A DNA stretch of 35,851 nucleotides from the IMG/VR virus record IMGVR_UViG_2909288124_000002; one strand, 5' to 3'. The notes under the pieces were generated by a model that had not been told where the DNA came from, ran no database searches, and worked only from the letters and a program-made list of their open reading frames with translations. Positions within the stretch are counted from its first letter, which is position 1. Every line of letters begins with the position of its first letter. The position numbers were made by a program, and so were the translations under genes. This document shows positions 1,328-29,008 of the stretch, in pieces. This DNA is from a virus. Lineage: Duplodnaviria > Heunggongvirae > Uroviricota > Caudoviricetes.

Positions 1328-1918
1328 ATGTCTCGAATTTTTGCTTACTGTCGGATATCAACGCTGGATCAGACCACCGAAAATCAACGCCGGGAAATCG
1401 AAAGTGCAGGTTTTAAAATCAAACCTCAGCAAATAATCGAAGAACACATTAGCGGCTCAGCAGCAACCAGTGAGCGTCCTGGTTTTAACCGGTTGCTTGC
1501 TCGCCTGAAATGTGGTGATCAATTGATTGTGACAAAACTGGATCGCCTTGGTTGTAATGCAATGGATATCAGGAAAACAGTGGAACAACTGACCGAAACA
1601 GGTATCAGAGTGCATTGCTTAGCATTGGGGGGCATTGACCTGACCAGTCCAACAGGAAAAATGATGATGCACGTAATTTCAGCAGTCGCTGAATTTGAAC
1701 GAGACCTTTTACTTGAACGCACTCATTCCGGGATAGTAAGAGCCCGCGGCGCAGGGAAACGTTTTGGTCGACCACCTGTGTTAAATGAAGAACAGAAACA
1801 GGTGGTATTCGAACGAATTAAGTCAGGTGTAAGTATAAGTGCCATTGCCCGGGAATTCAAAACCTCGCGGCAAACCATTTTAAGAGCCAAAGCAAAACTT
1901 CAGACACCTGACATATAA
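1328..1918 (+). CDS. pinQ: Serine recombinase, Pin-type DNA invertase (196 aa)
   Basis: ORF from ATG at 1328: [29 protein letters not shown]... with N-terminal catalytic Ser motif and C-terminal HTH ([19 protein letters not shown]). The ORF-track start at 1304 lies inside IS1 and is rejected. Symbol is from memory of Qin/Rac Pin proteins. Confidence 0.8.
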
Positions 1919-2027
1919 AAAATAATCTCGGTGTGAGATGCTTTACGTCTTCCAAGCCCCCTTCCTTGCCGTAAATGGAAAGATACATCTAATTATAGAA
2001 TTTATATGTTTTACCCTACGGCAGTGC

Positions 2028-2031
2028 TGGC
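2028..2031. repeat. Left copy of putative 4-bp target site duplication TGGC flanking the IS3-family element
   Basis: TGGC at 2028-2031 and again at 3253-3256, immediately outside the TGACC...GGTCA termini. Confidence 0.6.
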
Positions 2032-2102
2032 TGACCTGCTCCCCGTTGATTAGTACACCCCGATGTTAGTAATGTCTTCATAAGCCACATGAGGACATCC
2101 CC

Positions 2103-2366
2103 ATGAAGAAGCGTTTTTCCGACGAACAGATCATCAGTATTCTCCGCGAAGCCGAAGCTGGGGTACCCGCCCGTGAACTCTGCCGCAAGCATGCCATTTC
2201 CGATGCCACGTTTTACACCTGGCGTAAGAAGTATGGCGGTATGGAGGTGCCTGAAGTTAAGCGCCTGAAGTCGCTTGAGGAAGAGAACACCAGACTCAAG
2301 AAGCTGCTTGCCGAAGCCATGCTGGATAAAGAGGCGCTTCAGGTGGCTCTTGGGCGAAAGTACTGA
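2103..2366 (+). CDS. IS3-family transposase OrfA (HTH, leucine-zipper region)
   Basis: 87-aa [49 protein letters not shown]... typical of IS3/IS407-group OrfA. Confidence 0.85.
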
Positions 2367-2389
2367 CGACAGACCAGAAGCGGGAAGCC

Positions 2390-3223
2390 GTGATGTTGAT
2401 GTGTGATGCGACCGGTCTGTCGCAACGTCGTGCCTGCAGGCTTACAGGTTTATCCCTGTCGACCTGCCGCTATGAGGCTCACCGTCCGGCTGCTGATGCG
2501 CATTTATCAGGGCGCATCACTGAGCTGGCACTGGAGCGCAGGCGTTTTGGCTACCGTCGTATTTGGCAGTTGCTGCGCCGTGAAGGGCTTCATGTTAATC
2601 ATAAGCGCGTGTACCGGCTTTATCACCTCAGTGGCCTGGGCGTAAAACGCAGAAGACGTCGTAAAGGGCTGGCAACAGAACGTCTGCCGCTGCTCCGTCC
2701 GGCGGCGCCCAATCTGACCTGGTCGATGGATTTCGTCATGGACGCACTTTCCACCGGTCGCAGGATCAAGTGTCTTACCTGCGTCGATGATTTCACAAAG
2801 GAATGCCTGACGGTCACTGTTGCCTTTGGGATTTCAGGCGTTCAGGTCACGCGTATTCTGGACAGCATTGCACTGTTTCGAGGCTATCCGGCGACGATAA
2901 GAACTGACCAGGGGCCGGAGTTCACTTGCCGTGCACTGGATCAATGGGCCTTTGAGCATGGTGTTGAGTTGCGCTTAATCCAGCCGGGCAAGCCAACGCA
3001 GAACGGATTTATTGAGAGCTTTAACGGACGATTTCGCGATGAATGTTTGAATGAGCACTGGTTCAGCGATATCGTTCATGCCAGGAAAATTATTAATGAC
3101 TGGCGGCAGGATTATAACGAATGCCGCCCGCACTCCACGCTGAATTATCAGACACCGTCTGAATTTGCAGCGGGCTGGAGAAAGGGTCATTCTGAGAATG
3201 AAGATTCCGACGTTACTAACTGA
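2390..3223 (+). CDS. IS3-family transposase OrfB (DDE integrase core); probably made as OrfAB fusion by -1 frameshift
   Basis: ORF (GTG-initiated in the ORF track) with DDE residues: ...WSMDFV..., ...IRTDQGPEF..., ...[13 protein letters not shown]...; frame is -1 relative to orfA. The slippery site was not located. Confidence 0.85.
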
Positions 3224-3249
3224 GTGTTGTATCTAATCGTGGGGGCAGG

Positions 3250-3816
3250 TCATGGCCATTCAATATCCTGTGCAGTTGACGTATCAACACGGTTCAGCAA
3301 TACCCGATACTTTTTCCATGCTTCCAGCAACGAGATTTCTTCCTCCGTTGCAATTTCCAGATCTGCAGCATCCTGAAGCGGCGCAATATGCTCACTGGCT
3401 ACCTGCATCAGGTTGTTTTTTGTTTCTTCCGCCTCCCGGATCCGGAACAGTTTTTCTGCTTCCGTATCCTTCACCCAGGCTGTGCCGTTCCACTTCTGAA
3501 ACTCCCCTTCCGGCGATAACCAGGTAACATTTTCCGGTAACGGACCGAGTTCAGAAATAAATAACGCGTCGCCGGAAGCCACGTCATAAACCGTTTTACC
3601 CCGATGATCTTCAACGAGATGCCACGATGACTCATCACTGTTGAAAACAGCCACGAAGCCAGCCGGAATATCTGGCGGTGCAATATCGGTACTGTTTGCT
3701 GGCAGACCTGTATGAGGCGGAATATATGCATCACCTTCACCAATAAATTCATTAGTTCCGGCCAGCAGATTATAAATTTTTATGGTCCGTGGTTGTTCAC
3801 TCATTCTGAATGCCAT
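3250..3816 (-). CDS. tfa: Tail fiber assembly protein Tfa (lambda Tfa-like), C-terminus truncated by the IS insertion
   Basis: 188-aa [42 protein letters not shown]... matches lambda Tfa; the stop codon TGA is supplied by the IS terminus (3250-3252). Confidence 0.88.
3253..3256. repeat. Right copy of putative 4-bp target site duplication TGGC
   Basis: See 2028-2031. Confidence 0.6.
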
Positions 3817-6800
3817 TATGCAAGCCTCACAATATAGTTAAATGCGATGTTTTTGACGGTGTTTTCCGCGTTACCAGCAGCGTTAACGGTGATGGTGTGT
3901 CCATGTGAACCAATCGCAACGGAGTGCGTATGAGCACCAATACCGACAGTATGCGCGTGTGCACCTGCAGATGCTGCTGTGCCGGACAGTGAGTGGCTAT
4001 GATTACCATCTGTACTGGTATTAGCTAACCACCCCGTAGACATACCTACTGAGCCTTGTACACCCCAGGTATTTTGACCTGAGCTTGTATAACCATATTG
4101 ATAAGTATCTTTAAAAACACTGGGGTTAAATCGACGGCCATCTCTATGGCTGTGATTACCAGCTGCATTCGTGCTGCCACTTAAACTATGGGTATGCGCA
4201 CCAGTGTTATTCGTGGATTTAGTGCCGTAATCAAACGACGATGTGGTTTTCGTCCCCAAATCCGTACTGGATGCGCTGGCGCTGTGGGTATGCGATTTAA
4301 TGCCGTCCTGTTCCTGAGACAATACGGCCCGACCACTGGCAGGTTTGCCCTTAATCGTCCAGCCACGCATATCAGGGATCACGCCTGACGGATAAGCCGC
4401 TGCAAGTTTCGGGTATGCAGATTTGTCAAAAGTCTGCCCCTGCATCAGGGCATAGCCAGACGGAACGGTATCTGATGGCCACGGGATTGGTGCACCGACT
4501 GGATAAAACTCTGCAGGAGGATGAGCCGAGGTGTAAAGCTGCGCCCACGGCGACCAGTTTGCGTCGGTCGTATCCCGTCGTGAACGAATAAATGCCGGAG
4601 CATGAGCACCGCTTGTACCACTCCAGCCGATGAGTAACTCACCTTCGCCAACGGCTGTCATCCCTTTCAGGTGAATGATATTTCCATACGCTGTTGGATA
4701 TCCGTTGTTATACACCTCGTATAACTCAAGACCTGCTGCCCCCTGCGTATTGTCTGTCAGCGCGGTTACCCGACCTTTTGAAGCCAGATTAACTGATGAT
4801 ACTGCTGTTCCACCTGACGGTAACGCCCCGATCTCTGATGCCGTTGGCTTATTTCTGGAGTTATAGTCCCTTCGCCAGCCAGGTGAATAATCTGTTCCGT
4901 GATTAATATAGGTAAACTGGGCGTTAGTTGTTCCACCACCAGTGGAGGTGGTCGGTGTGGTAATGCGGATCGTCATCGCTGACTTTATCCCCATTACTTC
5001 AATGACAGCTCCGGCGAGATGAATATTACCGCAGTCAGTATCAGTAATGATTTTATTATTGCCATAAGACCAGGAACCCTTGCACATCCAGTATGGATGG
5101 TTAAATGCTCCCTGAGAATCCAGCCACTCGATAAACTGTGCAGTCGTCCAGTTTCCTGTTGTTGTGCTTACTGACCCACCGAAGGCACGGCAGGCACCAA
5201 TATTTTTCGTAAAGGTATCTTTGCCAGGGATATCCGCACCGTTCTGATCTTTCTGCAGACGTTTCTCAGCATTGTCATTGGCTGCTTTTACTGCCTTTGG
5301 TGTCGCGGCAAGCGTTTCAGACGTGCTGTTGGTCGCGCTGCTTAGCTGGATTATCCCTTTCTGTGCTGTCGTTGCATCCTGTGCGGTGTATTTCCCGTTA
5401 GCCAGGTCATACGCGGCCTTAACGGCTTTTGGTGTTGCCGCCAGTGACTCGGAAGTGCTGTTAGTCGCACTACTGAGCTGTACTATCCCCTTTTTCGTCG
5501 TGCTCGCATCCTCAAGCGCCACGGCGGATGCAATATCCTCTGCCCGTTTTGCTGCTGTCTCGGCGCGCGTTGCTGCGGATTCTGCCGTACTTTTGCTCTG
5601 TGCTGCCGCTGCCGCACTGCCAGCAGCCTCTGTCGCCTTCGTGGATGCCGTCGTGGCGCTGCCCCTCGCTGCTGACGCCTGTCTGGTCGCCTCATCTTTT
5701 GAAGCAGACGCCGATGATGCCGATGACGCCGCCGAACTGGCGGACGATGCGGCAGCCGTTTTTGAGGATTCTGCGCTGGTTTCCGACGCTTTCGCGTTCG
5801 TTTCGGATGTCTTCGCTGCGGAAGCAGACCTCGCTGCTGCGCTGGCCTGTTCAGTGGCTTCGCCAGCCTTCGTTGTGGCTGTTGAAGCGGATGATGCGGC
5901 GCTTTCTGCCGATTTTCCGGCGGCGGTGGCACTGACTGCTGCCTCCTCTGCCTTAATGGACGCCTCACGGGCCGATGATGCAGCTGTTGTCTCAGAGTCT
6001 GCCGCAGCTGAGGCGCTCTGTTCCGCTGCCGTTTCAGAAGACTTAGCATTCGTCTCGGACGTTTTTGCCGCCTTCACGGAATTTCCTGCCGCCGTTGCCG
6101 AGGAGGCTGCACTGCTGGCGCTTGTGGAGGCGTTCGTTTCTGATGATTTTGCCGCCTCTTTGGAGGCCGCCGCATCCCGGGCTGAAGTGGCGGCTTCTGA
6201 CGCTTTCGTCGTCGCAGTGGATGCAGAAGTGGCTGCTGATTTTTGTGACGCTGCAGCATTCGTTTCTGACGTTTTCGCGGCACCGGCACTGGTGGCCGCC
6301 GCGCTTTTTGAGGACTCTGCAGCGGCAGCACTTTTTGATGCTTCAGTGGCCTTTGTTGATGCCGTTCCTGCGCTGGAAGACGCCTCCTGAGCCGACGTCG
6401 CGGCCTGTCCGGCTGACGTGCTGGCTGCACGCGCTGAGCCTGCAGCATCAGTCGCATGGGTTGCCGCCTCACTGGCAGATGTGCCGGCATCACTGGCTGA
6501 CTTCTTCGCGGCTGCCGTGTTCTGTGCCACCGCGGACGCGTTACGCGCCACCTCTTCCACCATCAGTTCAAAACGGCGCAGAGCCTCCGGACGGGCATCA
6601 TCCTCCGTCATGGCACCGAGAAAATCATTCAGCGTACCGGGTCGGGAATCTTCATACACGGTGATGGTCCCGGCATGTGACGGCGGGAATCCTTCCACCA
6701 ACAGAATAACGCTGTACTGACCGTACTCAACGTCCATGCTGTAACGCCCGGCTTCATCCGGATTTTCTGAGGCCAGCGTGTTCACCACCACCGTGGTGCT

Positions 6801-6887
6801 GTTACGTTTTGCTTTCAGCTGGATTGTGCAGTTCTGTACCGGTTTTCCTGTGCCGTCTTTCAGTACACCTGAAATCTTTACTGCCAT
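3816..6887 (-). CDS. stf: Side tail fiber protein Stf (lambda Stf-like, long form, about 1023 aa)
   Basis: N-terminus [26 protein letters not shown]... and C-terminus ...[24 protein letters not shown] match lambda Stf; ATG at 6887 follows a GGGG Shine-Dalgarno (ORF track begins 2 codons earlier at GTG 6893). Confidence 0.9.
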
Positions 6888-6894
6888 ATTCACC

Positions 6895-6926
6895 CCACAA
6901 AAAAGCCCGCCTGAACCGGCGGGCTG
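6895..6926 (-). terminator. Putative intrinsic terminator downstream of lom, overlapping the stf ribosome-binding region
   Basis: Minus-strand hairpin AGCCCGCC-GGTTCA-GGCGGGCT followed by TTTTTTG. Confidence 0.55.
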
Positions 6927-6951
6927 TCATAACACTGTGTTACCTGGCTAA

Positions 6952-7551
6952 TCAGAACTTATAACCGACACCCACGATGAAACCGTCAGTGCGCCAGTCG
7001 CCACTGCCGGAGCCTTCATAAGCAATATCAATGGCCACGGATTCGGTCGGGTTAAACTGCACGCCAGCTCCCCACGCCAGAGACGTGTTGCTGTGGCGAC
7101 CGTCATCACTTCCGGTCAGCACGTCGTGCGTTTTCCCCTTGTTGTCAGTTACGCGGAGATAATCCCCGGAGAAAGTCGACACACGGCTGTAAGCCACACC
7201 CGCCATCGCATACGCGCTGAACCATTCATTCACGCGCACAGACGGCCCCGCCATTACGCTGAACCAGCGGTTACGAACGGAATCTTCATGCCAGCGGGTA
7301 TCGCTGTAACGGGTCAGCTGGCGATTCTTGTCTCCTGCATAGCTGAATGACGTCACCAGCCCCAGCGTATCCGTAAACTCATAACGGTATTTCACGTTAA
7401 TCCCGTTCAGATCATCACTGCCGGGAACGTTGGTCCGGGCATGAAGATACCCCGCGCTCAGCGTGGACTGATGTTCAGACGCCCATGCAGGCGCACCGGA
7501 TACGGCCAGACAAATGGCTGCGGACAAAATGGCTGCACAAACTTTACGCAT
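6952..7551 (-). CDS. lom: Lom outer membrane protein (Ail/Lom family)
   Basis: 199-aa ORF with signal peptide MRKVCAAILSAAICLAVSGAPAWA and beta-barrel-like C-terminus ending ...GVGYKF; sits between J and stf as in lambda. Confidence 0.9.
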   Translation of the reverse strand: MRKVCAAILSAAICLAVSGAPAWASEHQSTLSAGYLHARTNVPGSDDLNGINVKYRYEFTDTLGLVTSFSYAGDKNRQLTRYSDTRWHEDSVRNRWFSVMAGPSVRVNEWFSAYAMAGVAYSRVSTFSGDYLRVTDNKGKTHDVLTGSDDGRHSNTSLAWGAGVQFNPTESVAIDIAYEGSGSGDWRTDGFIVGVGYKF

Positions 7552-7621
7552 AATTACCTCTCGCTTTTCTGCAATAAAAAAGGCGTCATTCCTGACGCCA
7601 TTTATTGGGGTTATAAATATT

Positions 7622-10600
7622 TCAACGAATACTGATGCCTGAAGCCGCTTTTTTGGTCACAATCACCGTACAGTCGGTGATATTACCTGCCCGCTGATTG
7701 CCTTTATGGAAAACCTTAAACTCCAGAGTGACGCTTCCCCTGCCACTCGGCATATCAATAACCGCACTGTAGCTACCGGGAATGGCCCCTTTAGTTTCTC
7801 TGGATGCGATTAATACACCGTTTTTGCGAACTTCAAAACCATAACCCGTGTATCTTGTACCTCCCGGGTTATTACCACTTCCCGGATCGCTATACGCTAT
7901 TCCGTTAAAGATAATGGGCGGAATAATGATTTGACGGTCAAAGTTATGATCATCGCTGATGGTGACTGTAACCGTCCCGTTTGGTGTTTCCGTATTACCC
8001 CACGTACCAGCCTGTTTCGGGAATGATTTGGATACAGCTTTAACGAAGTCACCTCTGACCTGAGTCGCCTCCAGCATGCCCTTAATCGTACAGTTTTCAT
8101 TTACCGTGACATTGTTGAGCGTCCCGGCGTTCGCATTCACACTGCCACTGATATCCGCATTTTTAGCGGTCAGCTTTCCGTCTGATGTCAGGGAAAATGC
8201 CGGTGGATTTCCACCGCTGGTAATGGTCGGGGCCGTCAGGCGCTTCAGGAACACGTCGTTCATAAATATCTGATTGCCCTGCGCCACAAACATCGGCGTT
8301 TCATTCCCGTTTGCCGGTTCAATAAACGCGATACGGTTAGCGGCAACCAGAAACTGGCTCAGCTTACCTTCTTCCGTGTCCTCCATGCTGAGGCCAATAC
8401 CCGCGACATAATGTTTGCCGTCTTTGGTCTGCTCAATTTTGACGCCCCACATGGCATTCCACTTATCGTTAGCGTCCTGCCACTCTTTCGAAAACTCCTC
8501 CAGTCTGCTGGCGTTATCCTCCGTCAGCTCGACTTTTTCCAGCAGCTCCTTGCCGAGATGGGATTCGGTTATCTGGCCTTTGAAAAAATCCAGGTAACCT
8601 TCCGCATCATCGCTCGCCTGACCGACAGCCTCCACGAATGCCGATTTGCCAACGGTGTTCACACTGCGGATATAAAAGTAATAATCATGGCCCGGTTTGA
8701 TATTGATACTGGCGGCTATCCAGTACAGCGCCGTACCAAGATAGCGGGCTGTGGTTTCAACCTGCCTGATATCGGTAATCCGCGTTTCCGAGAACCAGAA
8801 CTCAAACTGTACCGTCGGATCATAAACCGCAAGATGCGGCGTGGCAGTTATCTGAAAATAGCCCGGCGTCAGCTCAATCCGCGACGGCGCTGCCGGGGCG
8901 GCAATCCGGAACGATACCGACGCCGGATCGCCCTGCTGTCCCCGGGCATTTACCGCCCGGACCGTCAGCATGTAACGCCCCAGCGCCAGTTGCGTGAAGC
9001 GGTATGTGGTTTCCGTCGTCCGGGCCGTGCTGACCAGCCGCTCACTGCCGTCATCCGCTGCCACGGTCAGGCGAAGCAGGAAGCTCACGCCCTTCACCAC
9101 CTTCGGCGTGTCCCAGCGGGCCAGCACCTGATATTCCCCACTGTCTGCGGTGACTTCGGCAGTCAGGTGCTGCACCGCTGGCGGCGTGACACCATTCACC
9201 GTGCCGCTCTGGTCGCCGTCAAAGTGCGCCCCGTTATCCACGATGGCCTCTTTCTCCGGTACATGCTGCACGGCAGTGATGGCATACGTGCCGTCATCGT
9301 TCTCACGGATACTCACGCAGCGGAACAGGCGCTGGCGCAACGTCGGCAGCTTCAGCCCCCATATGCTGTATCCGGCAACGCCGTCAGGAACACGGCTCAC
9401 TTTTACCTTCACGCCGTCGGTGACGGACTGGACCTCCACGCTGACCGGATTGCCTCTTCCGTCAACCAGGCTTATCAGCGTGGTACCGGAGGATGGCAGC
9501 GTGATTTCACGGTCGAGCGTCAGCGTCCGGGTCTGGCTGTTCACCGCCAGCACGCGACCACCGGTGCTGATACCGGCATAGTCATCATCGCAGATTTCAA
9601 TGACATCGCCCGGTACATGGCGAAGCCCTTCAGCACCCACGCTGAAATCCACGGTCTGCGTCTCCAGCAGTTCCGTTTTAATCAGCCACAGCCCGGCGCG
9701 GTGTGCCTGCCCCCGGCTGGTACAGCCAAAGGCATCCATCTTCGTGACATTACGACCGTAACGGGCAATGGCCTGCGTATCTTCAACAAGCTCTGTCGCC
9801 GTCTCCCAGCCGTTGTTCGGGTCAATCCAGTTCACCTCAACGGCATTATGGCGGTCCTTCAGGGCGCTGAAGCTGTAGCGGAACGGCGCGCCATCATCCG
9901 GCATCACCACATTACTGCGGTTATAGGTCCACACCTTATCTGATGGTCGGTCCTGCACGAACGTCAGCGTCTGCCCGTTCCATACCGGCATACAGCGCAT
10001 CGCCGAGCAGAAATCACTGAGCACATCCCACGCCTTACGCTGCGTGGTCAGCCAGGCATTACAGGTGATGCGCGGCTCCGTGCCGCCAAAGCCGTCCGGC
10101 ACTGACTGGTCGCAGTACTGGCCGATGACATACAGCGCCCATTTATCCACATCCGCCGCACCAAGACGTTTCCCCATGCCGTAGCGCGGGTGGGTCAGCA
10201 TATCCCACAGACACCAGGCCGGGTTGTTGCTGTATGCCGGCTTAAACGTTCCGTCCCAGATACCGCTGTATTGCCGCGTCTGCGGGTTATAGTTCGACGG
10301 CACCTGCAGAATGCGCCCGCGAAGATGATAATTACGGCTCACCTGCTGGCTGCCGAACTGCTCCGAGTCCACCTGCACGCCGACCAGTGCCGTGTTCGGG
10401 TAGCACTTTTCACATCGATGATTTCGGTGTATGACGACCAGAGCGTTTTGTTCTGCAGCTGGTCTGTGGTGCTGTCCGGCGTCATCCTGCGCATCCGGAT
10501 ATTAAACGGGCGCGGCGGCAGGCTACCCACCACCACCGAGGCCAGATACTGCGAGGTGGTTTTGCCCTTAATGGTGATGTCTTTTTCCGTCACCCAGCCA

Positions 10601-11034
10601 CCGTTACGTTGTATCTGAACCAGCAGACGGACTTCCGACGGATTCCTGTCACCCTTTGAGGTGGTTTCCACCAGTGCCTGTACACCGAAGGTAAAGCGCA
10701 GACGGTCGATGTTTGCAGACGTAATGGTGCGGGTGATCGGCGTGTCATATTTCACTTCCGTACCCAGCACCGTCTCGGAGCCGGAGGATTCAAACCCCTC
10801 CGGCGGTGTCTGCTCCTGCTCACCGGCACGGAACACCACCGTGACACCGGAGATGTTGGTATTCCCCTCAGTGTCCAGCACCGGCGTACTGTTCAGCAGC
10901 ACGCTTTTTAATCCATCCACCGGACCTTCAACCGGCCCTTCGCTGATGGCATCGATCACACTCAGCAACTGCGTGGACTTCAGGTTGTCCTTCGCTTCGC
11001 GCGGGGTATGCCCCTTACTGCTTCCTTTACCCAT
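7622..11034 (-). pseudogene. J: Tail tip / host specificity protein J, interrupted by a frameshift near 10405-10412
   Basis: Two consecutive ORFs in different frames both match lambda J: 10339..11034 (MGKGSSKGHTPREAKDNLKSTQLLSVIDAISEGP...) and 7622..10378 ([27 protein letters not shown]...). The N-terminal frame ends ...[14 protein letters not shown] where lambda J continues ...[23 protein letters not shown]. Confidence 0.8.
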
Positions 11035-11094
11035 TCCTCATGCTCCATAAATGACAAAACCGCCCGCAGGCGGTTTCACATAAAACATTTTGCA

Positions 11095-11766
11095 TCAGCG
11101 ACCAATCACCACAACCTGACCACCGTCCCCTTCGTCTGCCGTGCTGATCTCCTGAGAAACCACGCGTGACCCCACGCGCATTTCCCCGTACAGAACAGGC
11201 AGAACATTGCCCTGGGCAACCATGTTATCCAGTGAGGAGAAATAGGTGTTCTGCTTACCGTTATCCGTTGTCTGTGTACGGGGAGTTCTGGCTTTCGGTG
11301 CCAGCATCTGCGCCACACCACCAAGTACCATACTGGCACCGAGAGAAAACAGGATACTGGTCATACCACCGGCCCCAATGGCTGCCCCCCATGCTGCAAG
11401 GGTGGCTCCGGCAGTAAAGAATGATCCGGCAATGGTGGCAGCCCCCAGAACAATCTGGAATACGCCCCCTGACTTGGCCCCGGCGACTCTGGGAACAATA
11501 TGAATCACAGCGCCGTCAGGCAGAACCTCATGTAACTGCGCCGTCAATCCGGACGTGCTGACGTCCCGCCCGGAAATCCGTACCTGATACCAGCCGTCGC
11601 TCAGTTTCTGACGAAACGCCGGGAGCTGTGTGGCCAGCGCCCGGATGGCTTCAGCCCCCGTTTTCACACGAAGGTCGATGCGGCGGCCAAATCGTTGTAA
11701 ATCCCCGTAAAGGCAGATGCGCGCCATGCCCGGTGACGCCAGAGGGAGTGTGTGCGTCGCTGCCAT
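11095..11766 (-). CDS. I: Tail assembly protein I (223 aa)
   Basis: ORF MAATHTLPLASPGMARICLYGDLQRFGRRIDLRVKTGAEAIRA... matches lambda I; overlaps the end of K by 103 nt as in lambda. Confidence 0.92.
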   Translation of the reverse strand: MAATHTLPLASPGMARICLYGDLQRFGRRIDLRVKTGAEAIRALATQLPAFRQKLSDGWYQVRISGRDVSTSGLTAQLHEVLPDGAVIHIVPRVAGAKSGGVFQIVLGAATIAGSFFTAGATLAAWGAAIGAGGMTSILFSLGASMVLGGVAQMLAPKARTPRTQTTDNGKQNTYFSSLDNMVAQGNVLPVLYGEMRVGSRVVSQEISTADEGDGGQVVVIGR

Positions 11767-12407
11767 TTGTCGGTATACCTCTCTCGTTTGCTCAGTTGTT
11801 CAGGAATATGGTGCAGCAGCTCGCCGTCACCACAGTAAATGGCGGCATGATTCGGCATCGATGAACCAAAACAGCACAGCAGCACATCGCCCGGTTGTGC
11901 TGATGACAACGGCACCTGATACAGCCCTGTGGCCTCCAGATTATCCAGATAGAGATTCTGGCCGTGACGCCACCAGTCATCCCCGCGATGAAAATCCGGC
12001 ATCTCAATCCCCGCCAGATGATAAGCATCCCGGAACAGCGTGTAACAGTCCGTCACCCCGTGCTCAAAGCGCCGCCCGGTGAGATGCGGCACACAGCGGA
12101 ACTTATGAATCGCCCCCCGGCAGACCAGCAACCACGGCAAATCACTCTGCACCTGCAGCCGCCGGTCAGCCTCACTCAGCCAGGGCAGACCACCGGGGTG
12201 GCTGTGGACCAGCGCCACAATCTCACCCTGCATTTCTGCCTGCAGCCAGTCCTCCGGAGCCATCCGGAAATAATCCTCCGGCTCACCGGAAATATTCACG
12301 CAGGGAAAATATCTTTCCCCCTCCGGCGTGCTTACCACGAAGCCGCACGACTCCGCTGGCGCACATCGCCGGGCGTGCGCCAGAATCGCTGATTCTGTCT
12401 CTGTCAT
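11664..12407 (-). CDS. K: Tail tip assembly protein K (MPN/JAMM plus NlpC/P60 domains)
   Basis: ORF from MTETESAILAHARRCAPAESCGFV...; JAMM-type motif HSHPGGLPWLSEAD and NlpC/P60-like Cys/His residues; the start sits 4 nt after the L stop. The classical lambda annotation uses a later start. Confidence 0.88.
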   Translation of the reverse strand: MTETESAILAHARRCAPAESCGFVVSTPEGERYFPCVNISGEPEDYFRMAPEDWLQAEMQGEIVALVHSHPGGLPWLSEADRRLQVQSDLPWLLVCRGAIHKFRCVPHLTGRRFEHGVTDCYTLFRDAYHLAGIEMPDFHRGDDWWRHGQNLYLDNLEATGLYQVPLSSAQPGDVLLCCFGSSMPNHAAIYCGDGELLHHIPEQLSKRERYTDKWQRRTHSLWRHRAWRASAFTGIYNDLAAASTFV

Positions 12408-12411
12408 GGGA

Positions 12412-13110
12412 TTACTGCGAAAGTTTGTTAATGGAAAGGAAGCCGCCAAAGTTGCCGACGTTATTGCGAAACTTACAGCCGCTCAGGCATTTGCTGCATT
12501 TATCCTTCGTGATATCGGACGTTGGCTGGTCATATTCATCCGCGACAGCCGGACCGCTATAACCGCACTCGTCACCGCGATAGGTCCAGGTGCAGGTGTT
12601 GGCCAGCATGATACGTCCCGGAAAAACAGCGCCATCCGTTTCCGTCGGCGTGGACAGTACAAAGGAGGCACTCACCGCGCTCAGTTCGCTGCACTGCTCA
12701 ATGCGCCAGCGGCTGATCACCTCCTGCTCCGGATCGGCGTAACTGTTTCCGTTGACGAAGTTCACCGCATCCAGAAAACGGGCGTAAACCTTACGCCGGA
12801 CCACCGTTCCGCCGACCAGACTCTGCATATCTTCCGCCATCCCGGTGACCATACCGTACAGGTTAGAAACCGTCAGCGTGGGGCGCGTACTGGTGCCTTT
12901 GCCATTCAGTTCAAAACCGCTCCCCTGAATGGGATACGGCTGATACTGTCGCCCCTGCCAGGTGACCGGCTCACCTTTTTCGTTCTGCTCATTACAGAAA
13001 AAATAACGTTCTCCACCGACCTCTGTCAGGTCGATTTCCCAGAGCACCACGCTGGCCGACTGCTCCGCACGGGTGCATTCATTCAGTGTTTCCTGCCGGA
13101 TATCCTGCAT
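12412..13110 (-). CDS. L: Minor tail protein L (232 aa)
   Basis: ORF MQDIRQETLNECTRAEQSASVVLWEIDLTEVGGERYFFCNEQ... matches lambda L. Confidence 0.93.
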   Translation of the reverse strand: MQDIRQETLNECTRAEQSASVVLWEIDLTEVGGERYFFCNEQNEKGEPVTWQGRQYQPYPIQGSGFELNGKGTSTRPTLTVSNLYGMVTGMAEDMQSLVGGTVVRRKVYARFLDAVNFVNGNSYADPEQEVISRWRIEQCSELSAVSASFVLSTPTETDGAVFPGRIMLANTCTWTYRGDECGYSGPAVADEYDQPTSDITKDKCSKCLSGCKFRNNVGNFGGFLSINKLSQ

Positions 13111-13439
13111 CAGTTCACCACCTGTTCAAACTCTGCGCTGAACTCAACACGCAGCATACTGACCCGCGACGACCATTTTGCGCAGGTCACCTTTATCTGC
13201 CGCCACTCATAAGGCGGCGTCCACAGAAAGGATTTCCAGCCCCCGTGCTCTTCCAGAAACGACTCCAGTACCGTGGCCTCCTCACGGGGGACAGAAAGCG
13301 TCACGCTGTACGTTTTCAGGTTGGCATTCAGCCCGGCAGGCGCTCGCTGAGAATAGCCATCACCAAAGCGCACCTTTCTTACAGAAGGGACCGAAGCCAC
13401 ATCCATACCGGGTTTCACTTTCCAGCGGAAGGTCTTCAT
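13110..13439 (-). CDS. M: Minor tail protein M (109 aa)
   Basis: ORF MKTFRWKVKPGMDVASVPSVRKVRFGDGYSQRAPAGLN... matches lambda M. Confidence 0.93.
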   Translation of the reverse strand: MKTFRWKVKPGMDVASVPSVRKVRFGDGYSQRAPAGLNANLKTYSVTLSVPREEATVLESFLEEHGGWKSFLWTPPYEWRQIKVTCAKWSSRVSMLRVEFSAEFEQVVN

Positions 13440-15997
13440 CGTCCACCTCCGGAGAACAGGCCACCATCACGCATCTGTGTCTGAATTTCATCACGGGCAC
13501 CCTTGCGGGCCATGTCATACACCGCCTTCAGAGCAGCCGGACCTATCTGCCCGTTCGTGCCGTCGTTGTTAATCACCACATGGTTATTCTGCTCAAACGT
13601 CCCGGACGCCTGCGACCGGCTGTCTGCCATGCTGCCCGGTGTACCGACATAACCGCCGGTGGCATAGCCGCGCATCAGCCGGTAAAGATTCCCCACGCCA
13701 ATCCGGCTGGTTGCCTCCTTCGTGAAGACAAACTCACCACGGTGAACAATCCCCGCTGGCTCATATTTGCCGCCGGTTCCCGTAAATCCTCCGGTTGCAA
13801 AATGGAATTTCGCCGCAGCGGCCTGAATGGCTGTACCGCCTGACGCGGATGCGCCGCCACCAACACCCCCGCCAATGGCGCTGCCGATACTCCCGACAAT
13901 CCCCACCATTGCCTGCTTAAGCAGAATTTCTGTCATCATGGACAGCACGGAACGGGTGAAGCTGCGCCAGTTCTGCTCACTGCCGGTCAGCATAGCTGCC
14001 ATATTCTGTGCAATACCATCAAAGGTCTGCGTGGCTGCACTTTTTACCTGCGACATACTGTCCGTGGCGCTCTCTTCCCACTCACTCCAGCCGGACTTCA
14101 GGCCTGCCATCCAGTTCCCGCGAAGCTGGTCTTCAGCCGCCCAGGTCTTTTTCTGCTCTGACATGACGTTATTCAGCGCCAGCGGATTATCGCCATACTG
14201 TTCCTTCAGGCGCTGTTCCGTGGCTTCCCGTTCTGCCTGCCGGTCAGTCAGCCCCCGGCTTTTCGCATCAATGGCGGCCCGTTTTGCCCGTTGCTGCTGT
14301 GCGAATTTATCCGCCTGCTGCGCCAGCGCGTTCAGGCGCTCCTGATACGTAACCTTGTCGCCAAGTGCAGCCAGCTGGCGTTTGTACTCCAGCGTCTCAT
14401 CTTTATGCGCCAGCAGGGATTTCTCCTGTGCAGACAGCTGGCGACGTTGCGCCGCCTCCTCCAGTACCGCGAACTGACTCTCCGCCTTCCACAAATCCCG
14501 GCGCTGCTGGCTGATTTTCTCATTTGCTCCGGCATGCTTCTCCAGCGTCCGGAGTTCTGCCTGAAGCGTCAGCAGGGCAGCATGAGCACTGTCTTCCTGA
14601 CGATCGCCCGCAGACACCTTCACGCCGGACTGTTTCGGCTTTTTCAGCGTCGCTTCATAATCCTTTTTCGCCGCCGCCATCAGCGTGTTGTAATCCGCCT
14701 GCAGGATTTTCCCGTCTTTCAGTGCCTTGTTCAGTTCTTCCTGACGGGCGGTATATTTCTCCAGCGGCGTCTGCAGCCGTTCGTAAGCCTTCTGCGCCTC
14801 TTCGGTATATTTCAGCCGTGACGCTTCGGTATCGCTCTGCTGCTGCGCATTTTTGTCCTGTTGAGTCTGCTGCTCAGCCTTCTTTCGGGCGGCTTCAAGC
14901 GCAAGACGGGCCTTTTCACGATCATCCCAGTAACGCGCCCGCGCTTCATCGTTAACAAAATAATCATCCTTGCGCAGATTCCAGATGTCGTCTGCTTTCT
15001 TAAACGCAGCCTCTGCCTTAATCAGCATCTCCTGCGCGGTATCAGGACGACCAATATCCAGCACCGCATCCCACATGGATTTGAATGCCCGCGCAGTCCT
15101 GTCTGCCCAGGTCTCCAGCGTGCCCATGTTCTCTTTCAGGCGGCGGGTCTGGTCATCAAACCCTTTCGTTGCGGCCTCGTTCGCCGCCTGCAATGCCCCG
15201 GCTTCATCGCCGGAACGCTGCAACTGAGCAACATACGCAATCTGCTCCGCCGTCACGTTATGGAACTGGCGTGCCATCGCCGTCAGCCCCGACGTCGGGT
15301 CTGTGGTCAGCTTCCCGAAGGCTTCAGCGACCTTGTCCACCTCCACGCCGGATGCAGAGGAGAAACGCGCCACACTCTGGCTGATGGACGCAATCTGAGC
15401 CTCACCGCTTACCCCCGCCTTAACCAGTGCGCTGAGTGACTCGCTGGTCTGGTTAAACGTCAGCCCTGCCGCCTGCCCGGCTCTGGACAGGACCAGCATA
15501 CGATCTGCCGTCAGTCCCGCCTGATTGCCGGAAAGGACCAGCGTTTTGTTGAAATCGGACAGGGTTGAGTTGCCCTGATACCAGGCATACGCCAGCGCAC
15601 CGGTCGCCACCGCCAGCGAGGTGGCCCCCACCATCGGCAGGGTGATCGCACCGGCAAGCCCCCTGAACATGGGGATCATCCCGCCGAAGGAGTCCTTCAC
15701 CTGCCCCCCCTGTTGCAGCAGGATCAGCCACGGACTTTGCCCGCCTGCAAGCTGCGTGGCCACGTCGGTGAACTGTGCAGGCAGCATACGCATGGCGGCT
15801 TTATACTGCCCGACGGAAATCCCCGCTTTCTGTGCAGCCAGCGCCTGTCGGCTCAGCGACTGTTCAACGACTGCCGCTGTTTTTTTCGCATCACTTTCCG
15901 TACCGGAAAAATGACGCCTGACTCTGGCCATCTGCTCGTCAAATCTGGCCGCATCCAGACTCAAATCAACGACCAGATCGCCTACCGGTTCAGCCAT
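13436..15997 (-). CDS. H: Tail tape measure protein H (853 aa)
   Basis: 853-aa ORF MAEPVGDLVVDLSLDAARFDEQMARVRRHF... with coiled-coil rich centre; same length and position as lambda H. Confidence 0.93.
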   Translation of the reverse strand: MAEPVGDLVVDLSLDAARFDEQMARVRRHFSGTESDAKKTAAVVEQSLSRQALAAQKAGISVGQYKAAMRMLPAQFTDVATQLAGGQSPWLILLQQGGQVKDSFGGMIPMFRGLAGAITLPMVGATSLAVATGALAYAWYQGNSTLSDFNKTLVLSGNQAGLTADRMLVLSRAGQAAGLTFNQTSESLSALVKAGVSGEAQIASISQSVARFSSASGVEVDKVAEAFGKLTTDPTSGLTAMARQFHNVTAEQIAYVAQLQRSGDEAGALQAANEAATKGFDDQTRRLKENMGTLETWADRTARAFKSMWDAVLDIGRPDTAQEMLIKAEAAFKKADDIWNLRKDDYFVNDEARARYWDDREKARLALEAARKKAEQQTQQDKNAQQQSDTEASRLKYTEEAQKAYERLQTPLEKYTARQEELNKALKDGKILQADYNTLMAAAKKDYEATLKKPKQSGVKVSAGDRQEDSAHAALLTLQAELRTLEKHAGANEKISQQRRDLWKAESQFAVLEEAAQRRQLSAQEKSLLAHKDETLEYKRQLAALGDKVTYQERLNALAQQADKFAQQQRAKRAAIDAKSRGLTDRQAEREATEQRLKEQYGDNPLALNNVMSEQKKTWAAEDQLRGNWMAGLKSGWSEWEESATDSMSQVKSAATQTFDGIAQNMAAMLTGSEQNWRSFTRSVLSMMTEILLKQAMVGIVGSIGSAIGGGVGGGASASGGTAIQAAAAKFHFATGGFTGTGGKYEPAGIVHRGEFVFTKEATSRIGVGNLYRLMRGYATGGYVGTPGSMADSRSQASGTFEQNNHVVINNDGTNGQIGPAALKAVYDMARKGARDEIQTQMRDGGLFSGGGR

Positions 15998-16828
15998 ACC
16001 GGACTCCTCCTGCGATCCCTTCTGATACTGTCATCAGCATTACGTCATCCTCCGTCATGTCCGCCACATCCGGGGAAGCGGGGATAACTTCATTCCCGTC
16101 CGGGCCAAAGCGGACACCTCCGGCAAGCCCTGCCGCTTTCTGCATCAGCACATCATCTTCAGGCTCTTCGTCAGCCTCGCGCCGGTTCAGCAGACTGAAA
16201 TCCAGCGGATGCATATCCGGATCGCTGAAAAACAGGCTGAGCACGGTGTACGTCAGCCCGGAAAAGTGCATATCCAGCAGAACATCATGAAAATAATGGG
16301 TACTGTAAAAGCGGTGCCAGTCGGCATACTCCGTGGATGACATCCCGGCAAGCATGGCACGCCAGTCGGGTCGCCCCATCTCACGCGCCAGTTTCAGGGC
16401 AAAACTCAGCTCACCGTCGAACACTTTCCCGCAGAAACAGGCTCTGCGGGCCCGGCGTCCTCTGTCTGTTCAGGGGCATTATTCACCACAAACTCATACA
16501 TACCAGACAGCCGGTACACCACGTTTTCAGCATGAGAAATTGCCTCCGTGGGCCAGGTGGTAAGCACTTCCTGCTCAATCTGTTTAACGGCTTCATTCAT
16601 GGACGGCATCTGCGTCTTCTGCGGATGGTTATGCCACAGGGACATCGCCACCAGAAACGCGCCGGTTCTGATGGCGTCTTCCACAGTAAACTTCCGGTTG
16701 CTGTCTGACTCCGCCTGTTCTGCCTGCCGTTTCATCAGGGCGAGATGCTCAATGCGCTGCAGGGCTGACAGTTCAGAAAGCGTGACGGTCACACCGTTAT
16801 GTTCAAATGATTCGGTTTTCAGGAACAT
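15990..16828 (-). CDS. T: Tail assembly chaperone G-T fusion made by programmed -1 ribosomal frameshift
   Basis: T frame (15990..16424, MFDGELSFALKLAREMGRPDW...) overlaps the end of G in the -1 frame; slippery heptamer GGGAAAG on the minus strand at 16424-16430. Confidence 0.85.
16406..16828 (-). CDS. G: Tail assembly chaperone G (140 aa)
   Basis: ORF MFLKTESFEHNGVTVTLSELSALQRIEHLALMKRQ... matches lambda G. Confidence 0.93.
   Translation of the reverse strand: MFLKTESFEHNGVTVTLSELSALQRIEHLALMKRQAEQAESDSNRKFTVEDAIRTGAFLVAMSLWHNHPQKTQMPSMNEAVKQIEQEVLTTWPTEAISHAENVVYRLSGMYEFVVNNAPEQTEDAGPAEPVSAGKCSTVS
16424..16430 (-). promoter_or_regulatory. G/T -1 programmed frameshift slippery sequence G GGA AAG
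   Basis: Plus-strand CTTTCCC at 16424-16430 is the reverse complement of GGGAAAG, located 18 nt before the G stop codon. Confidence 0.8.
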
Positions 16829-16843
16829 CGCTGACTCTCCGGA

Positions 16844-17584
16844 TTAACTGGCGGTGACGGTAATTTCTGCAACCGCAGCAAACTCACCATTACCGGATAC
16901 AACCGGAATGTTGACCTTGCCTGCAGCAACGCCGTTCACGGTGATGGTCATACCACTGACCGACACGGTGGCTTTTGTTTTATCCGCAGACACCGCACGA
17001 AAGCTCTTGTCGGTTACGCCCTCCGGCTGGAAGGCCACGGTCAGCGTGGTGCTCTGCCCTTTCACCACCGAGGTGCTGGCAGGCGTCACGGTCATGCCGG
17101 TTGCCGCTGTTACCGTGCTGCGATCTTCTGCCATCGACGGACGTCCCACATTGGTGACTTTCACCGTGCGGGTGATCACTTCCTTCGCCGTCACCGCCTT
17201 ACCGATACTGCTGACCCAGCCACGGAACACATCGACCGTGCCGTTCGGGAAGCGGATTTTATAGGCACGGGTATCGCCTTCATTAAACCACGCCAGCAGC
17301 GCCTGCTGCCCCTGCTCTCCGGGCATCCACGCCAGCGTGAAGCTGGTATCTCCGGCAGATTTCTGCCCCTGCCCGGTCGCAGTCCAGTCTGCATCTTCAT
17401 CATCGAGATAGCTGTCGTCATAGGACTCAGCGGTCAGTTCGCCGGGCGTCAGGTCTTTAACTTTTGCCAGACGCGACCAGTCAACGTCTGAAAGCGGATT
17501 CGCATAAGGGTCACCGCTCCCCTTATAAACCCACAGGGTGGTCCCGGCACCTTTCACCGGCATTGTAGGATTTGGTACAGGCAT
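16844..17584 (-). CDS. V: Major tail tube protein V (246 aa)
   Basis: From [30 protein letters not shown]...; C-terminal Ig-like region ...[18 protein letters not shown]. The ORF track begins 10 codons upstream. Confidence 0.92.
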
Positions 17585-17591
17585 AGCGTCC

Positions 17592-17987
17592 TCACATTTC
17601 ATAGGTAATGACATAAGTCAGATCGGCTGAACTCCACAGGCCCGCATCATCGTCGCGCCGGTAGTCATAGCCGCTGGCCACCATACTGGTGATCAAATCT
17701 GACAGTGCCGGGATATCGCTCATCACCGGATAAATCCGGGACTCCATCCACGCATCCAGCTCTGAATCCGGCACCTGAGCAGGCAGGAAAACTTCGATAT
17801 GCAGCTCCGCCTGCCAGGTATCGCTGTCCAGCTCTTCGCCCGTGTATTCAGCGCCGGTGAGATAAACGGCAACTGCCGGAAAATCCGCCTCATCAAAAAC
17901 AGCGGGGCGACCATCAAAAAACGTCGCCCCGGTGTCATGCTTCTCCAGTGCATCCAGTACGGCTGCACGGAGTTCAGTATGTTTCAT
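17592..17987 (-). CDS. U: Tail terminator protein U (131 aa)
   Basis: [36 protein letters not shown]... matches lambda U. Confidence 0.93.
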
Positions 17988-18562
17988 CGCTTTATTACCA
18001 TCCTCAGTTGATGCTGCAGCGCATAGCCCAGCTCTTTCGGAAGACGTTCACGCCGTATCCGCTCAATATTTTGTTTAAACGCCGTGGTCAGCGGCACCGC
18101 CATCGGGATTTTCACCACATCAATGGGGTAACGGTTTTTCCCGGCCACACGCTGCATGACATGCCACCGGCCATTTTTCAGTTGCTGAATAAACGCGCCG
18201 GGAATACGACGGTTACCCACCACAAGCACGCTGCCGCCACCTTTCAGGGATGAACGCTGCCCCTTTTTACGACGCCTGCGGCGCGAAAGGACAACCCGCG
18301 CATTACGCAGCTTGATTACGGGCAAATCCCCCCGGTTAACTTTGATTCTGGCCTGCGGATTTTTGACCGTGGCCCTTTTCAGCCTGGCCCTTTCCTTTAC
18401 CAGTTTCCGGCGTACCTTTGTCTCACGGGCAACCTGTGACGCCGACTGCGATATCGCGGATGAAGCAACGCGGTTAATGGCCATTGCGGCGGCACCAGGC
18501 ACCGCCGTTTTGCTGATACGGCTGAGGTTTTCAACGGCCTGCTCAAGACCTTTTATGGCCAT
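17984..18562 (-). CDS. Z: Tail completion protein Z (192 aa)
   Basis: ORF MAIKGLEQAVENLSRISKTAVPGAAAMAINRVASSAISQ... matches lambda Z. Confidence 0.92.
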   Translation of the reverse strand: MAIKGLEQAVENLSRISKTAVPGAAAMAINRVASSAISQSASQVARETKVRRKLVKERARLKRATVKNPQARIKVNRGDLPVIKLRNARVVLSRRRRRKKGQRSSLKGGGSVLVVGNRRIPGAFIQQLKNGRWHVMQRVAGKNRYPIDVVKIPMAVPLTTAFKQNIERIRRERLPKELGYALQHQLRMVIKR

Positions 18563-18573
18563 ACATCCCCCTT

Positions 18574-18927
18574 TCAGCGGCGACGGTTAACGGCAGGCGG
18601 TACGCCCCGTCCAAGCCAGAGATGACAACTTCCGCCATCATCCGGCGAAACCCGATCTACCCAGAAATTTTCCTCACCGATGGTCAGCGTGTCTCCACGC
18701 CGCAGCTGCCGCACCTCATCAGTCCGGACAAACAGGGACGGGCTGGAGCCTTCAACGCGCACGCCCTGTCCGGCATAGCTGATATTTTCAGGATCATCAA
18801 AAACACCACGTATCACAGCACCGGACTGCTCACCGGATGTCATGGTGGCTGACGTTCCCATGTACCCGCGTATCGTTTCATCGGCGCGGGCAATGGCAGC
18901 ATCGAACAGGTTATCGAAATCAGCCAC
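18574..18927 (-). CDS. FII: Head-tail connector protein FII (117 aa)
   Basis: ORF MADFDNLFDAAIARADETIRGYMGTSATMTSGEQSG... matches lambda FII. Confidence 0.92.
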   Translation of the reverse strand: MADFDNLFDAAIARADETIRGYMGTSATMTSGEQSGAVIRGVFDDPENISYAGQGVRVEGSSPSLFVRTDEVRQLRRGDTLTIGEENFWVDRVSPDDGGSCHLWLGRGVPPAVNRRR

Positions 18928-18938
18928 AGCGCCTCCCG

Positions 18939-19334
18939 TTATTGCATTCTGGCCAGGCCGCGCTCTGTCATTTCAGCTGCCACACCGGCAGAGACACGGA
19001 ACGCCGTTCCCGGCAGCACAAATGCCACAGCCTCATCCCGCGTGGCGTGAAGTGCATCAGTATGCAGCGTCACCAGTGCCACAACCGTGACCAGATCAGC
19101 CGTATCAGTCACGGTATCCGGCTGCGCTGATACCACCTCATTTTCATGTCCGGTCAGCGCATTTTCCGGGCTGACAGATGTGTCCTGACCAGCAGCGTCA
19201 TCCGTGTCATCAAGCTCCTCTTCCAGCTCTGCCACACGGAGTGCCAGTTCTTCTTTCGTCCCCGTCAGGCTGACATCACGGTTCAGTTGCTCACCCAGCA
19301 CCTGAAGACGGGCAATCAGTTCATCTTTCGTCAT
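18939..19334 (-). CDS. FI: DNA packaging protein FI
   Basis: From MTKDELIARLQVLGEQLNRDVSLTGTKEELALRVAELEEELDD...; the ORF track begins 13 codons upstream. Confidence 0.88.
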   Translation of the reverse strand: MTKDELIARLQVLGEQLNRDVSLTGTKEELALRVAELEEELDDTDDAAGQDTSVSPENALTGHENEVVSAQPDTVTDTADLVTVVALVTLHTDALHATRDEAVAFVLPGTAFRVSAGVAAEMTERGLARMQ

Positions 19335-19375
19335 GGACTCCTCCACAGAGAGAAAATGGCCCCGAAGGGCCATGA

Positions 19376-20401
19376 TTACGCCAGTTGTACGGACACGAAC
19401 GCATCAGGGTCAGCCAGCAGCATCAGCGGTGCTGACTGAATCATGGTGAACTCACGCGCCGGATCGCCGGTGGTCACCCAGTTTTTCGGGTAGCGGGCAG
19501 AGGCGTTAATACCTTCGCGCTGTGCGTCCGCATCCTGAATGCAGCCATAGGTGCGCAGACCGCGTGCCTGAGTGTTCCCCAGCACCATCGTGTTGTCCGG
19601 CAGGAAGTTCTTTTTGACGTCGTTTTCCACGTACTGTCCGGAATACACGACGATCGCCGTATCGCCATACATCCCCTTATAGGACACCGCTTCGCCCAGG
19701 TCTTTTACCGCTGTCTCCAGCTCGGAATTAGAGCCGCGACGGGTATCCAGCTTCTCCCTGACGGCTTTGAAGGAACGGAACAGCGCCCAGCCTTTCGGAT
19801 CAAACACGATGATATTCACCACACCGCTGGCGTTCAGCGCGTAGGCTTCGATATCGTCGGTCGGGTCATACGTGGACTTGTCACGCTTGCTCCACTCCGT
19901 ACCGCCGGACTGCGTGATGTTGTTCGCCACACTGCGGCCCATATCCACTTCAACCGGAGCGAAGGCTTCACCGGTCATGGTATATTTGCCCTTAAGCACG
20001 GCAGAAACGGCCTGCATCTCTTCGACCTGAGCAATGGCCAGCTCTTCGTCTCGCATGTTCTGCAGGATGATGCGACGGCGGCGGTAAGCCGGGTCCGCCA
20101 GATTCTGCGGATCTTCATCCGGCAGGCGACGCAGGGTCATCTGCGGATTCACTTCATGCTTCGGCTTGACATATCCCGGCGTAAATTCAGAGGTGGAGCC
20201 GCCACGGGAACGGATAACCTCACCGGAAACAATCGGCGAAACGTACAGCGCCATGTTTACCAGTCCCGGAATTTGTGAGAGATAGACTTTCTCCGTGGTG
20301 AAGGGATAGCTCTCACGGAAAAAGAGACGCAGAAACAGCGGATCAAACTTAAATTTCTGCTCATTTGCCGCCAGCAGCTGGGCGGTTGTGTACATCGACA
20401 T
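19376..20401 (-). CDS. E: Major capsid protein E (341 aa)
   Basis: From MSMYTTAQLLAANEQKFKFDPLFLRLFFRESYPF...; HK97-fold capsid protein in the lambda position. Confidence 0.93.
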   Translation of the reverse strand: MSMYTTAQLLAANEQKFKFDPLFLRLFFRESYPFTTEKVYLSQIPGLVNMALYVSPIVSGEVIRSRGGSTSEFTPGYVKPKHEVNPQMTLRRLPDEDPQNLADPAYRRRRIILQNMRDEELAIAQVEEMQAVSAVLKGKYTMTGEAFAPVEVDMGRSVANNITQSGGTEWSKRDKSTYDPTDDIEAYALNASGVVNIIVFDPKGWALFRSFKAVREKLDTRRGSNSELETAVKDLGEAVSYKGMYGDTAIVVYSGQYVENDVKKNFLPDNTMVLGNTQARGLRTYGCIQDADAQREGINASARYPKNWVTTGDPAREFTMIQSAPLMLLADPDAFVSVQLA

Positions 20402-28162: not shown

Positions 28163-28433
28163 GATGTTACCGTAGTATGTGAGTATCCATCGAATAGACA
28201 CCAAGCAAAAAAGCTCCCGAAGGAGCCTTCATTTTCACTTTTTTAAATCCAACGACAGACGGCTGGCATTTAAGTATTGTGAAATATTATCAAATGTAAT
28301 CATCATTGATTTACAAAAGATACATTTTGCCCCGAAAGGATTCATGTCAGAAACATCAAAAGATGATGTTCTATACTGGGAACCATGACAACACGGGCAT
28401 CTAAAGTGAATATGGTTTGTAATATTGTCTACC

Positions 28434-28646
28434 TCAAAGCGCCACTACATGAACAGCGGCAGGACCTTTAGGTCCGTTCTCAATACCAAATTCAACTTCC
28501 TGATTCTCAGTTAATGTTTTGAAATCGTTGCTCTGAATTGCTGAGAAATGGACAAACACATCTTTGCTGCCATCTTTCGGCGTGATGAAACCAAAACCTT
28601 TTTCAGGGTTAAACCATTTCACTAAACCAGTCATTTTGTTAGACAT
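28434..28646 (-). CDS. cspI: Cold shock protein CspI (70 aa)
   Basis: [73 protein letters not shown] with RNP1/RNP2 cold-shock domain motifs. Confidence 0.9.
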
Positions 28647-29008
28647 AATTATTACCTTTTGAAGAAATTAGCCCTTGGGCAGAATGGTCCGAAAAAAAAT
28701 ATCAGAGAGAAAAACCAACAAGGAAATCTCAAGAGGTACAAATAATAAAATTATAACAATGACTGCTTCAGATAAATTTGTAACAAACCAGAACACCATT
28801 AACGCATGATTAACCACCCATAGCAAGGATTACTTTTGTAAAGAAAAACACAGCAATGAAAGAATAGCTTTATTTATTAATAAAACGTGTCATTCTGATT
28901 AAGACCTTTTATCTTACCCTTAAGATTTCAGGAATTTTGGCTCATGGAAGAGTCCTTTTTATTTAAATTTTACATTCCGCGATGTAAATGTTCCGATTTA
29001 ATATTACC

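Follow-up and report, generated by a model that had tools for sequence, protein, structure and literature searches.

An IS3-family insertion sequence of ISSen4/IS1222 type in the last codons of tfa in a Qin-like prophage of Escherichia coli

Genes and features at the locus

The window, that is, the whole stretch of 35,851 nucleotides that was analysed, contains a full-length Qin-like lambdoid prophage beside ydfK, with YdfK itself encoded by positions 1-234. The genes follow the order ydfK, pin, insertion sequence (IS), tfa, stf, lom and J, and then tail, head, terminase, lysis and Q-region genes. The same neighbours (ydfK, pinQ, tfaQ and a tail-fibre gene) are found in the Qin prophage of E. 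coli K-12; however, the K-12 Qin is a remnant prophage, whereas that of the window is full-length and has head, tail and lysis genes. The features at the insertion and on either side of it are the following.

1328..1918, plus strand: pin, intact gene for a pinQ-type serine invertase of 196 aa, with Resolvase and HTH_7 domains and 0 differences from PinQ of strain 873.10
2016..2027, minus strand: orphaned native 3' end of tfa, GCA CTG CCG TAG (Ala189 Leu190 Pro191 stop), identical to the end of K-12 tfaQ
2028..2031, no strand: left copy of the target-site duplication, TGGC; the K-12 empty site has a single TGGC
2032..3252, plus strand (transposase strand): intact IS3-family insertion sequence of ISSen4/IS1222 type, 1221 bp, with full-length 100% E. 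coli matches and ends set by seven sequence contexts
2032..2057, plus strand: IRL, left terminal inverted repeat, TGACCTGCTCCCCGTTGATTAGTACA, inner limit approximate
2103..2366, plus strand: orfA, 87 aa, helix-turn-helix part of the transposase (PF01527 HTH_Tnp_1, 83.3 bits)
2333..2450, plus strand: programmed -1 frameshift element, Rfam RF00383 IS1222_FSE (156.6 bits, gathering score 45, model positions 1-118 of 118)
2360..3223, plus strand: orfB frame, DDE/rve catalytic part of the transposase, -1 relative to orfA (PF00665 rve, 85.8 bits; PF13683 rve_3, 108.4 bits; HTH_21)
3228..3252, plus strand: IRR, right terminal inverted repeat, ending GGGGGCAGGTCA, inner limit approximate
3250..3816, minus strand: truncated tail-fibre assembly gene (tfaQ allele), 188 aa, ending DIEWP (PF02413 Caudo_TAP), identical to K-12 TfaQ residues 1-188
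3253..3256, no strand: right copy of the target-site duplication, TGGC; the K-12 empty site has a single TGGC
3816..6887, minus strand: stf, side tail-fibre gene with a 1023-aa product (phage_tail_N, Phage_fiber_2 and Collar domains)

The stf gene lies directly upstream of tfa in the same operon, with the tfa start overlapping the stf stop codon by one base, and Stf is presumed to be the client of Tfa. Antisense to the Ala/Ser-rich repetitive middle of stf, a 372-aa open reading frame was noted (5272-6390, plus strand), which is most likely a by-product of biased composition and not a gene. Further along the prophage, two Rfam matches to the cspA thermoregulator were found on the minus strand at 28407-28792 and 31302-31694 (112.8 and 158.8 bits, respectively); they agree with the known presence of genes for cold-shock proteins in Qin.

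The gene for gpJ (7622-11034, minus strand) carries a single-base deletion at about 10406 relative to strain 873.10, the window reading GCACTTTTCAC where strain 873.10 (L011) has GCACTGTTTCAC, and J is thereby split into open reading frames of 231 and 918 aa. Since J is intact (1137 aa) in two draft assemblies, L012 and L013, that both share the IS junction described below, the frameshift is explained either by a mutation particular to this strain or by an error in sequencing.

The pin gene and its surroundings

The end of pin lies 113 bp from the start of the IS. The element had earlier been described as separating pin from tfa, and physically it does so; nothing suggests, however, that this separation matters, the two genes being likewise convergent in the K-12 Qin with a spacer of about 100 bp. 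An invertible tail-fibre switch of the Gin/Cin/Pin type was considered and rejected: no inverted repeats linking the pin-tfa spacer to stf were found in the window, which contains only one stf/tfa pair. Hits to an invertase crossover-like pattern occurred at chance level and were located elsewhere, which is a weak negative. A scan of the pin-tfa site for an intrinsic terminator or a promoter returned none above the shuffled background. On the minus strand just beyond the pin stop there is a 5-bp hairpin with a T-run that falls below the criteria of the terminator scan, and we attach no claim to it.

A second insertion sequence, a complete IS1 of 768 bp, occupies positions 550-1317 and is bounded by a perfect 9-bp target-site duplication, GAGTCTCAC, with copies at 541-549 and 1318-1326. 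Only 1 bp separates it from the downstream ATG of pin (1328), and it therefore cuts pin off from any promoter in the ydfK-pin spacer. When the IS1 and one repeat are removed, the remaining sequence is colinear with K-12 ydfK-pinQ (1141 bp, 6 mismatches). As a single piece, the IS1-pin junction is absent from complete RefSeq E. coli genomes, where only two-piece composites occur. In strain 873.10 the ydfK-pinQ spacer holds a different IS3-family element (L011, 2974-4181), and this spacer has thus been hit independently at least two times.

Identity and coding capacity of the inserted element

The 1221-bp element between pin and tfa begins with TGACCTGC and ends with GCAGGTCA (2032-3252). Four traits of the IS3 family are present. 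First, the terminal inverted repeats are imperfect and run from a 5'-TG start to a CA-3' finish, with 11 of the 12 terminal bases complementary and the pairing extended to about 26 bp by a gapped alignment. Second, orfA and orfB overlap; orfB lies in the -1 frame and has no stop within the overlap. Third, the target-site duplication is short (3-5 bp in the family), being here the 4-bp TGGC. Fourth, OrfA has a helix-turn-helix and OrfB a DDE (rve, retroviral-integrase-like) catalytic domain. When fused at the slippery site, OrfAB amounts to 373 aa and matches the NCBIfam model NF033516 "IS3 family transposase" at 308.4 bits against a cut-off of 160. Together with the domains of orfA and orfB and a full-length IS1222 frameshift element, this match bears out the assignment of the element to the IS3 family that had been made from the letters only.

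The slippery heptanucleotide of the frameshift element, the unusual G_CGA_AAG, was located at 2354-2360 inside the zero-frame codons GGG CGA AAG (2352-2360), and stem-loops lie downstream of it at about 2367-2422. The 118-nt match to the frameshift element of IS1222, an IS3-family element of Enterobacter agglomerans, is full-length and nearly perfect, although the comparison with IS1222 covers the frameshift region only. The overall length of IS1222, which we take to be 1221 bp, would equal that of the element in the window. The transposase of IS1222 is made by way of a G_CGA_AAG site (review, PMC5009743).

In a search of 5426 complete E. coli genomes, the best match to the element had at least 99% identity in 430 records. 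Copies identical over all 1221 bases occur on many E. coli chromosomes and plasmids; E. coli C, with 20 full-length copies, is among the carriers of such 100% identical elements. PGAP labels identical copies 'IS3-like element ISSen4 family transposase' (WP_085950818.1) and treats each as a single coding sequence joined by a programmed frameshift. On the basis of the PGAP product names and the Rfam match, we assign the element to the ISSen4/IS1222 type. It shows no difference from the PGAP-named ISSen4 and may be ISSen4 itself or an isoform. Presumably, elements of the ISSen4 type belong to the IS407 subgroup. In the literature on ISSen4, only catalogue mentions in plasmid papers were found.

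Boundaries and target-site duplication

The boundaries were tested with eight other full-length copies of the element that have 0 mismatches and lie in seven distinct sequence contexts. Right outside TGACC...GGTCA the flanks of all seven contexts are unrelated, and similarity to the window stops exactly there. As these independent copies end at the same points, the ends of the element are fixed at 2032 and 3252, where the earlier note had placed them, and the length of the duplication is 4 bp. The TGGC reported on both sides is indeed present at 2028-2031 and 3253-3256, and 4-bp duplications flank other copies as well: direct repeats of TGGC, TCGC, GAAG and CTTT were seen in four of the seven contexts. 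The remaining three have no target duplication, which is the outcome expected of recombination between IS copies. The other copy flanked by TGGC is an identical element at an unrelated locus, adjoining wzzB in E. coli WCHEC050613 (L004). With TGGC at two loci, the five duplications in all are too small a sample for a claim of target preference.

A 4-bp flanking repeat has by itself a chance probability of 1/256. The duplication is nevertheless not a matter of chance, because the reconstructed empty site is fully identical to natural junctions over its 299 bp, as described next.

The empty site

When the flanks are joined with one copy of TGGC, the sequence reads ...GAA TGG CCA GCA CTG CCG TAG (EWPALP, stop). 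The 299-bp empty site reconstructed in this way matches the pinQ-tfaQ or pinR-tfaR junction from end to end with 100% identity in 30 of the 30 E. coli genomes listed, including K-12 MG1655, and its best match reaches at least 99% identity in 1666 records. In a three-way alignment with the K-12 Qin, the two flanks of the window tile the K-12 sequence and overlap by exactly TGGC. The proposal that the insertion is precise and that the native 3' end of tfa can be read across the element is thus borne out by an exact empty site in K-12 and other genomes. The locus has undergone a single IS insertion in which 4 bp were duplicated and no host sequence was lost, and the element is indistinguishable from copies elsewhere.

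These data also bear on the possibility that the flanks were brought together by an IS-mediated rearrangement, either recombination between IS copies or an adjacent deletion, with loss of native sequence. Such events do occur with this element, judging by the three contexts without target duplications. At this locus, however, the two flanks directly adjoin each other in the empty site, nothing is missing and the 4-bp duplication is shared, so that the exact match refutes a rearrangement. In addition, the prophage on the right side of the IS follows that of strain 873.10 colinearly, and pin and the spacer on the left are identical to those of the same strain. We consider a rearrangement to have practically no probability and regard the insertion as a simple one.

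Occurrence of the insertion in other genomes

The closest relative is a near-identical prophage of E. coli 873.10, in which tfaQ is intact and no IS is present at the tfa site; over 16.7 kb (window positions 3257-20000) the two differ by four substitutions and one indel. The IS insertion in tfaQ is absent from all complete RefSeq E. coli genomes. The only apparent match among complete genomes, NCTC9064, was rejected because it is a composite of unrelated pieces at a different locus, namely a tfa, an IS911 and a truncated copy of ISSen4. When the exact left junction was sought in a one-genome-per-species collection, there was no match, but this negative is uninformative as the insertion is lineage-specific.

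In draft data the situation is different. The tfa/IS junction was found base for base in at least two independent public assemblies (L012 and L013), one of them an NCBI draft and the other assembled by Logan from an SRA run; the contigs of both extend tens of bases into the element and then break within this repeat. Any estimate of how frequent the insertion is would come from draft contigs of this kind. GCA_050025215.1 represents one carrier strain. The 188-aa Tfa itself has been deposited on 22 contigs, the longest of 4.90 Mb, under the name "tail fiber assembly protein [Escherichia coli]" (e.g., ARD51311.1).

An assembly artefact would be a further explanation, in which a repeated IS was misplaced or collapsed between pin and tfa while the true genome has an intact tfaQ. 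The lack of the insertion in every complete RefSeq E. coli genome and the composite nature of the NCTC9064 match would fit this explanation. However, a misassembly would not yield a perfect 4-bp duplication around an exact empty site; moreover, the junction is identical in two independent assemblies, and the protein of exactly 188 aa is recorded on 22 contigs. An artefact is therefore improbable in the extreme. The insertion is real, is common to an E. coli lineage and has already been deposited.

Truncation of tfa and the C-terminus of Tfa

On the minus strand, tfa ends with ...GAT ATT GAA TGG CCA TGA, and the stop codon is supplied by the IS, whose terminal TCA (3250-3252) reads TGA on this strand. 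This reading agrees with the earlier note, according to which the present tfa stop is the IS terminus itself and Tfa ends in DIEWP. K-12 tfaQ is annotated with 576 bp and its product (WP_000885611.1) has 191 aa, namely the 188 aa of the window plus Ala-Leu-Pro, which establishes DIEWPALP as the native C-terminus, as had been predicted. Tfa of the window scores 143.8 bits with PF02413 Caudo_TAP (cut-off 22.1) over profile positions 1-127 of 131. Relative to TfaQ and TfaR of the K-12 Qin and Rac prophages, which belong to the same family, it is identical over residues 1-188 and differs in lacking the final ALP.

Homologous C-termini were compared among the 120 best cluster representatives. Trp-Pro is reached by 110 of these, none of which ends there, and the tail that follows ranges from two residues (EL) to 17 in ordinary proteins; it mostly consists of x-x-Pro with none to three further residues, and longer tails occur in two products that are fused or result from read-through. 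A check of homologues for an end at DIEWP, which had been proposed along with the reconstruction, consequently turned up no such protein. While Trp-Pro is invariant in an alignment of 21 sequences, the tail beyond it varies, with a Pro three residues after Trp-Pro in most homologues. Having no residues past Trp-Pro, Tfa of the window is a truncated member of the Caudo_TAP family rather than a non-member.

For the Tfa of phage Mu, the summary in PMC9608196 of the work of North et al. (2019) describes a variable, fibre-binding beta domain at the N-terminus and, at the C-terminus, a conserved domain of helices that is proposed to drive trimerisation. The two-domain layout is common to TfaMu and the Tfa of the window, their kinship being one of family only, with distant sequences. 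In an AlphaFold monomer model of a close full-length homologue (mean pLDDT 73), N-terminal strands are followed by helices at 114-148, 154-171 and 175-180. The last seven residues form a coil after the helical domain in this model.

As the tail beyond Trp-Pro varies in both length and sequence, we lean towards the view that the truncated Tfa has kept much of its function. Some loss of function may have occurred: every homologue sampled has a tail past Trp-Pro, in most of them with a Pro three residues on.

A candidate small RNA of E. coli, 'IS009' (Rfam RF02111), was matched in full length at 3275-3473 on the minus strand with 220.9 bits. It lies within the 3' half of tfa, in the sense orientation, and may be a genuine RNA or simply conserved coding sequence; 22 nt separate the end of the match from the IS junction.

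Interpretation

The insertion could be more than a chance event. It could have been selected because it cripples fibre assembly during domestication of the prophage, or because it alters the expression of pin, tfa or 'IS009'. In its most specific form, this proposal would have the loss of Ala-Leu-Pro, including the conserved Pro, disable or change the chaperone action of Tfa, with the IS under selection as it helps to lock down the prophage; otherwise the IS would perturb the 'IS009' RNA candidate. Several observations could be read in this way, namely the spread of the insertion allele over at least 22 contigs (with the junction confirmed in two independent assemblies), the second IS next to the pin start codon, the frameshift in gpJ, the lack of any sampled homologue that stops at Trp-Pro, and the end of the 'IS009' match so close to the junction. 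On the other side, the loss amounts to only three residues of a length-variable tail, the presence of the allele on many contigs is as clonal descent would have it, and a build-up of IS elements is the neutral expectation for cryptic prophages; moreover, another strain with the insertion has an intact gpJ, and the site has no terminator or promoter feature above the shuffled background. A selected insertion therefore appears unlikely to us, and the same low rating applies to the specific form of the proposal, although neither is as improbable as an artefact or a rearrangement.

By far the most probable history is that an active ISSen4/IS1222-type element transposed once into the final codons of tfaQ, the gene belonging to a Qin-like lambdoid prophage that resides at ydfJ/ydfK in an E. 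coli lineage. The element makes OrfAB, its transposase, by -1 ribosomal frameshifting at G_CGA_AAG. The pathway itself can be inferred from work on the family members IS911 and IS2 (e.g., PMC3299598): OrfAB would catalyse copy-out/paste-in transposition via a circular intermediate, and the target would then have been cut with a 4-bp stagger, leaving TGGC duplicated. With the TGA of the IS end in frame after Pro188, translation of Tfa stops at this codon, so that no foreign residues are added and Ala-Leu-Pro is lost, and the tfa 3' untranslated region is displaced by 1.2 kb to the far side of the IS.

Implications

Such a transposition is ordinary in kind, as it concerns a known IS in a known prophage gene and an allele that is already present in public databases. 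For annotation, the tfa of the window should be read as an IS-truncated tfaQ and not as a natural short variant; databases list its 188-aa product as an ordinary protein. The two IS junctions might be used as a marker of the carrier E. coli lineage as a clone. Both ends of the element read TGA, and for this reason one third of its insertions into coding sequence would terminate the protein without adding any foreign residues. If the truncated Tfa were inactive, of which nothing here gives an indication, the extreme C-terminus would be a required part of Tfa chaperones.
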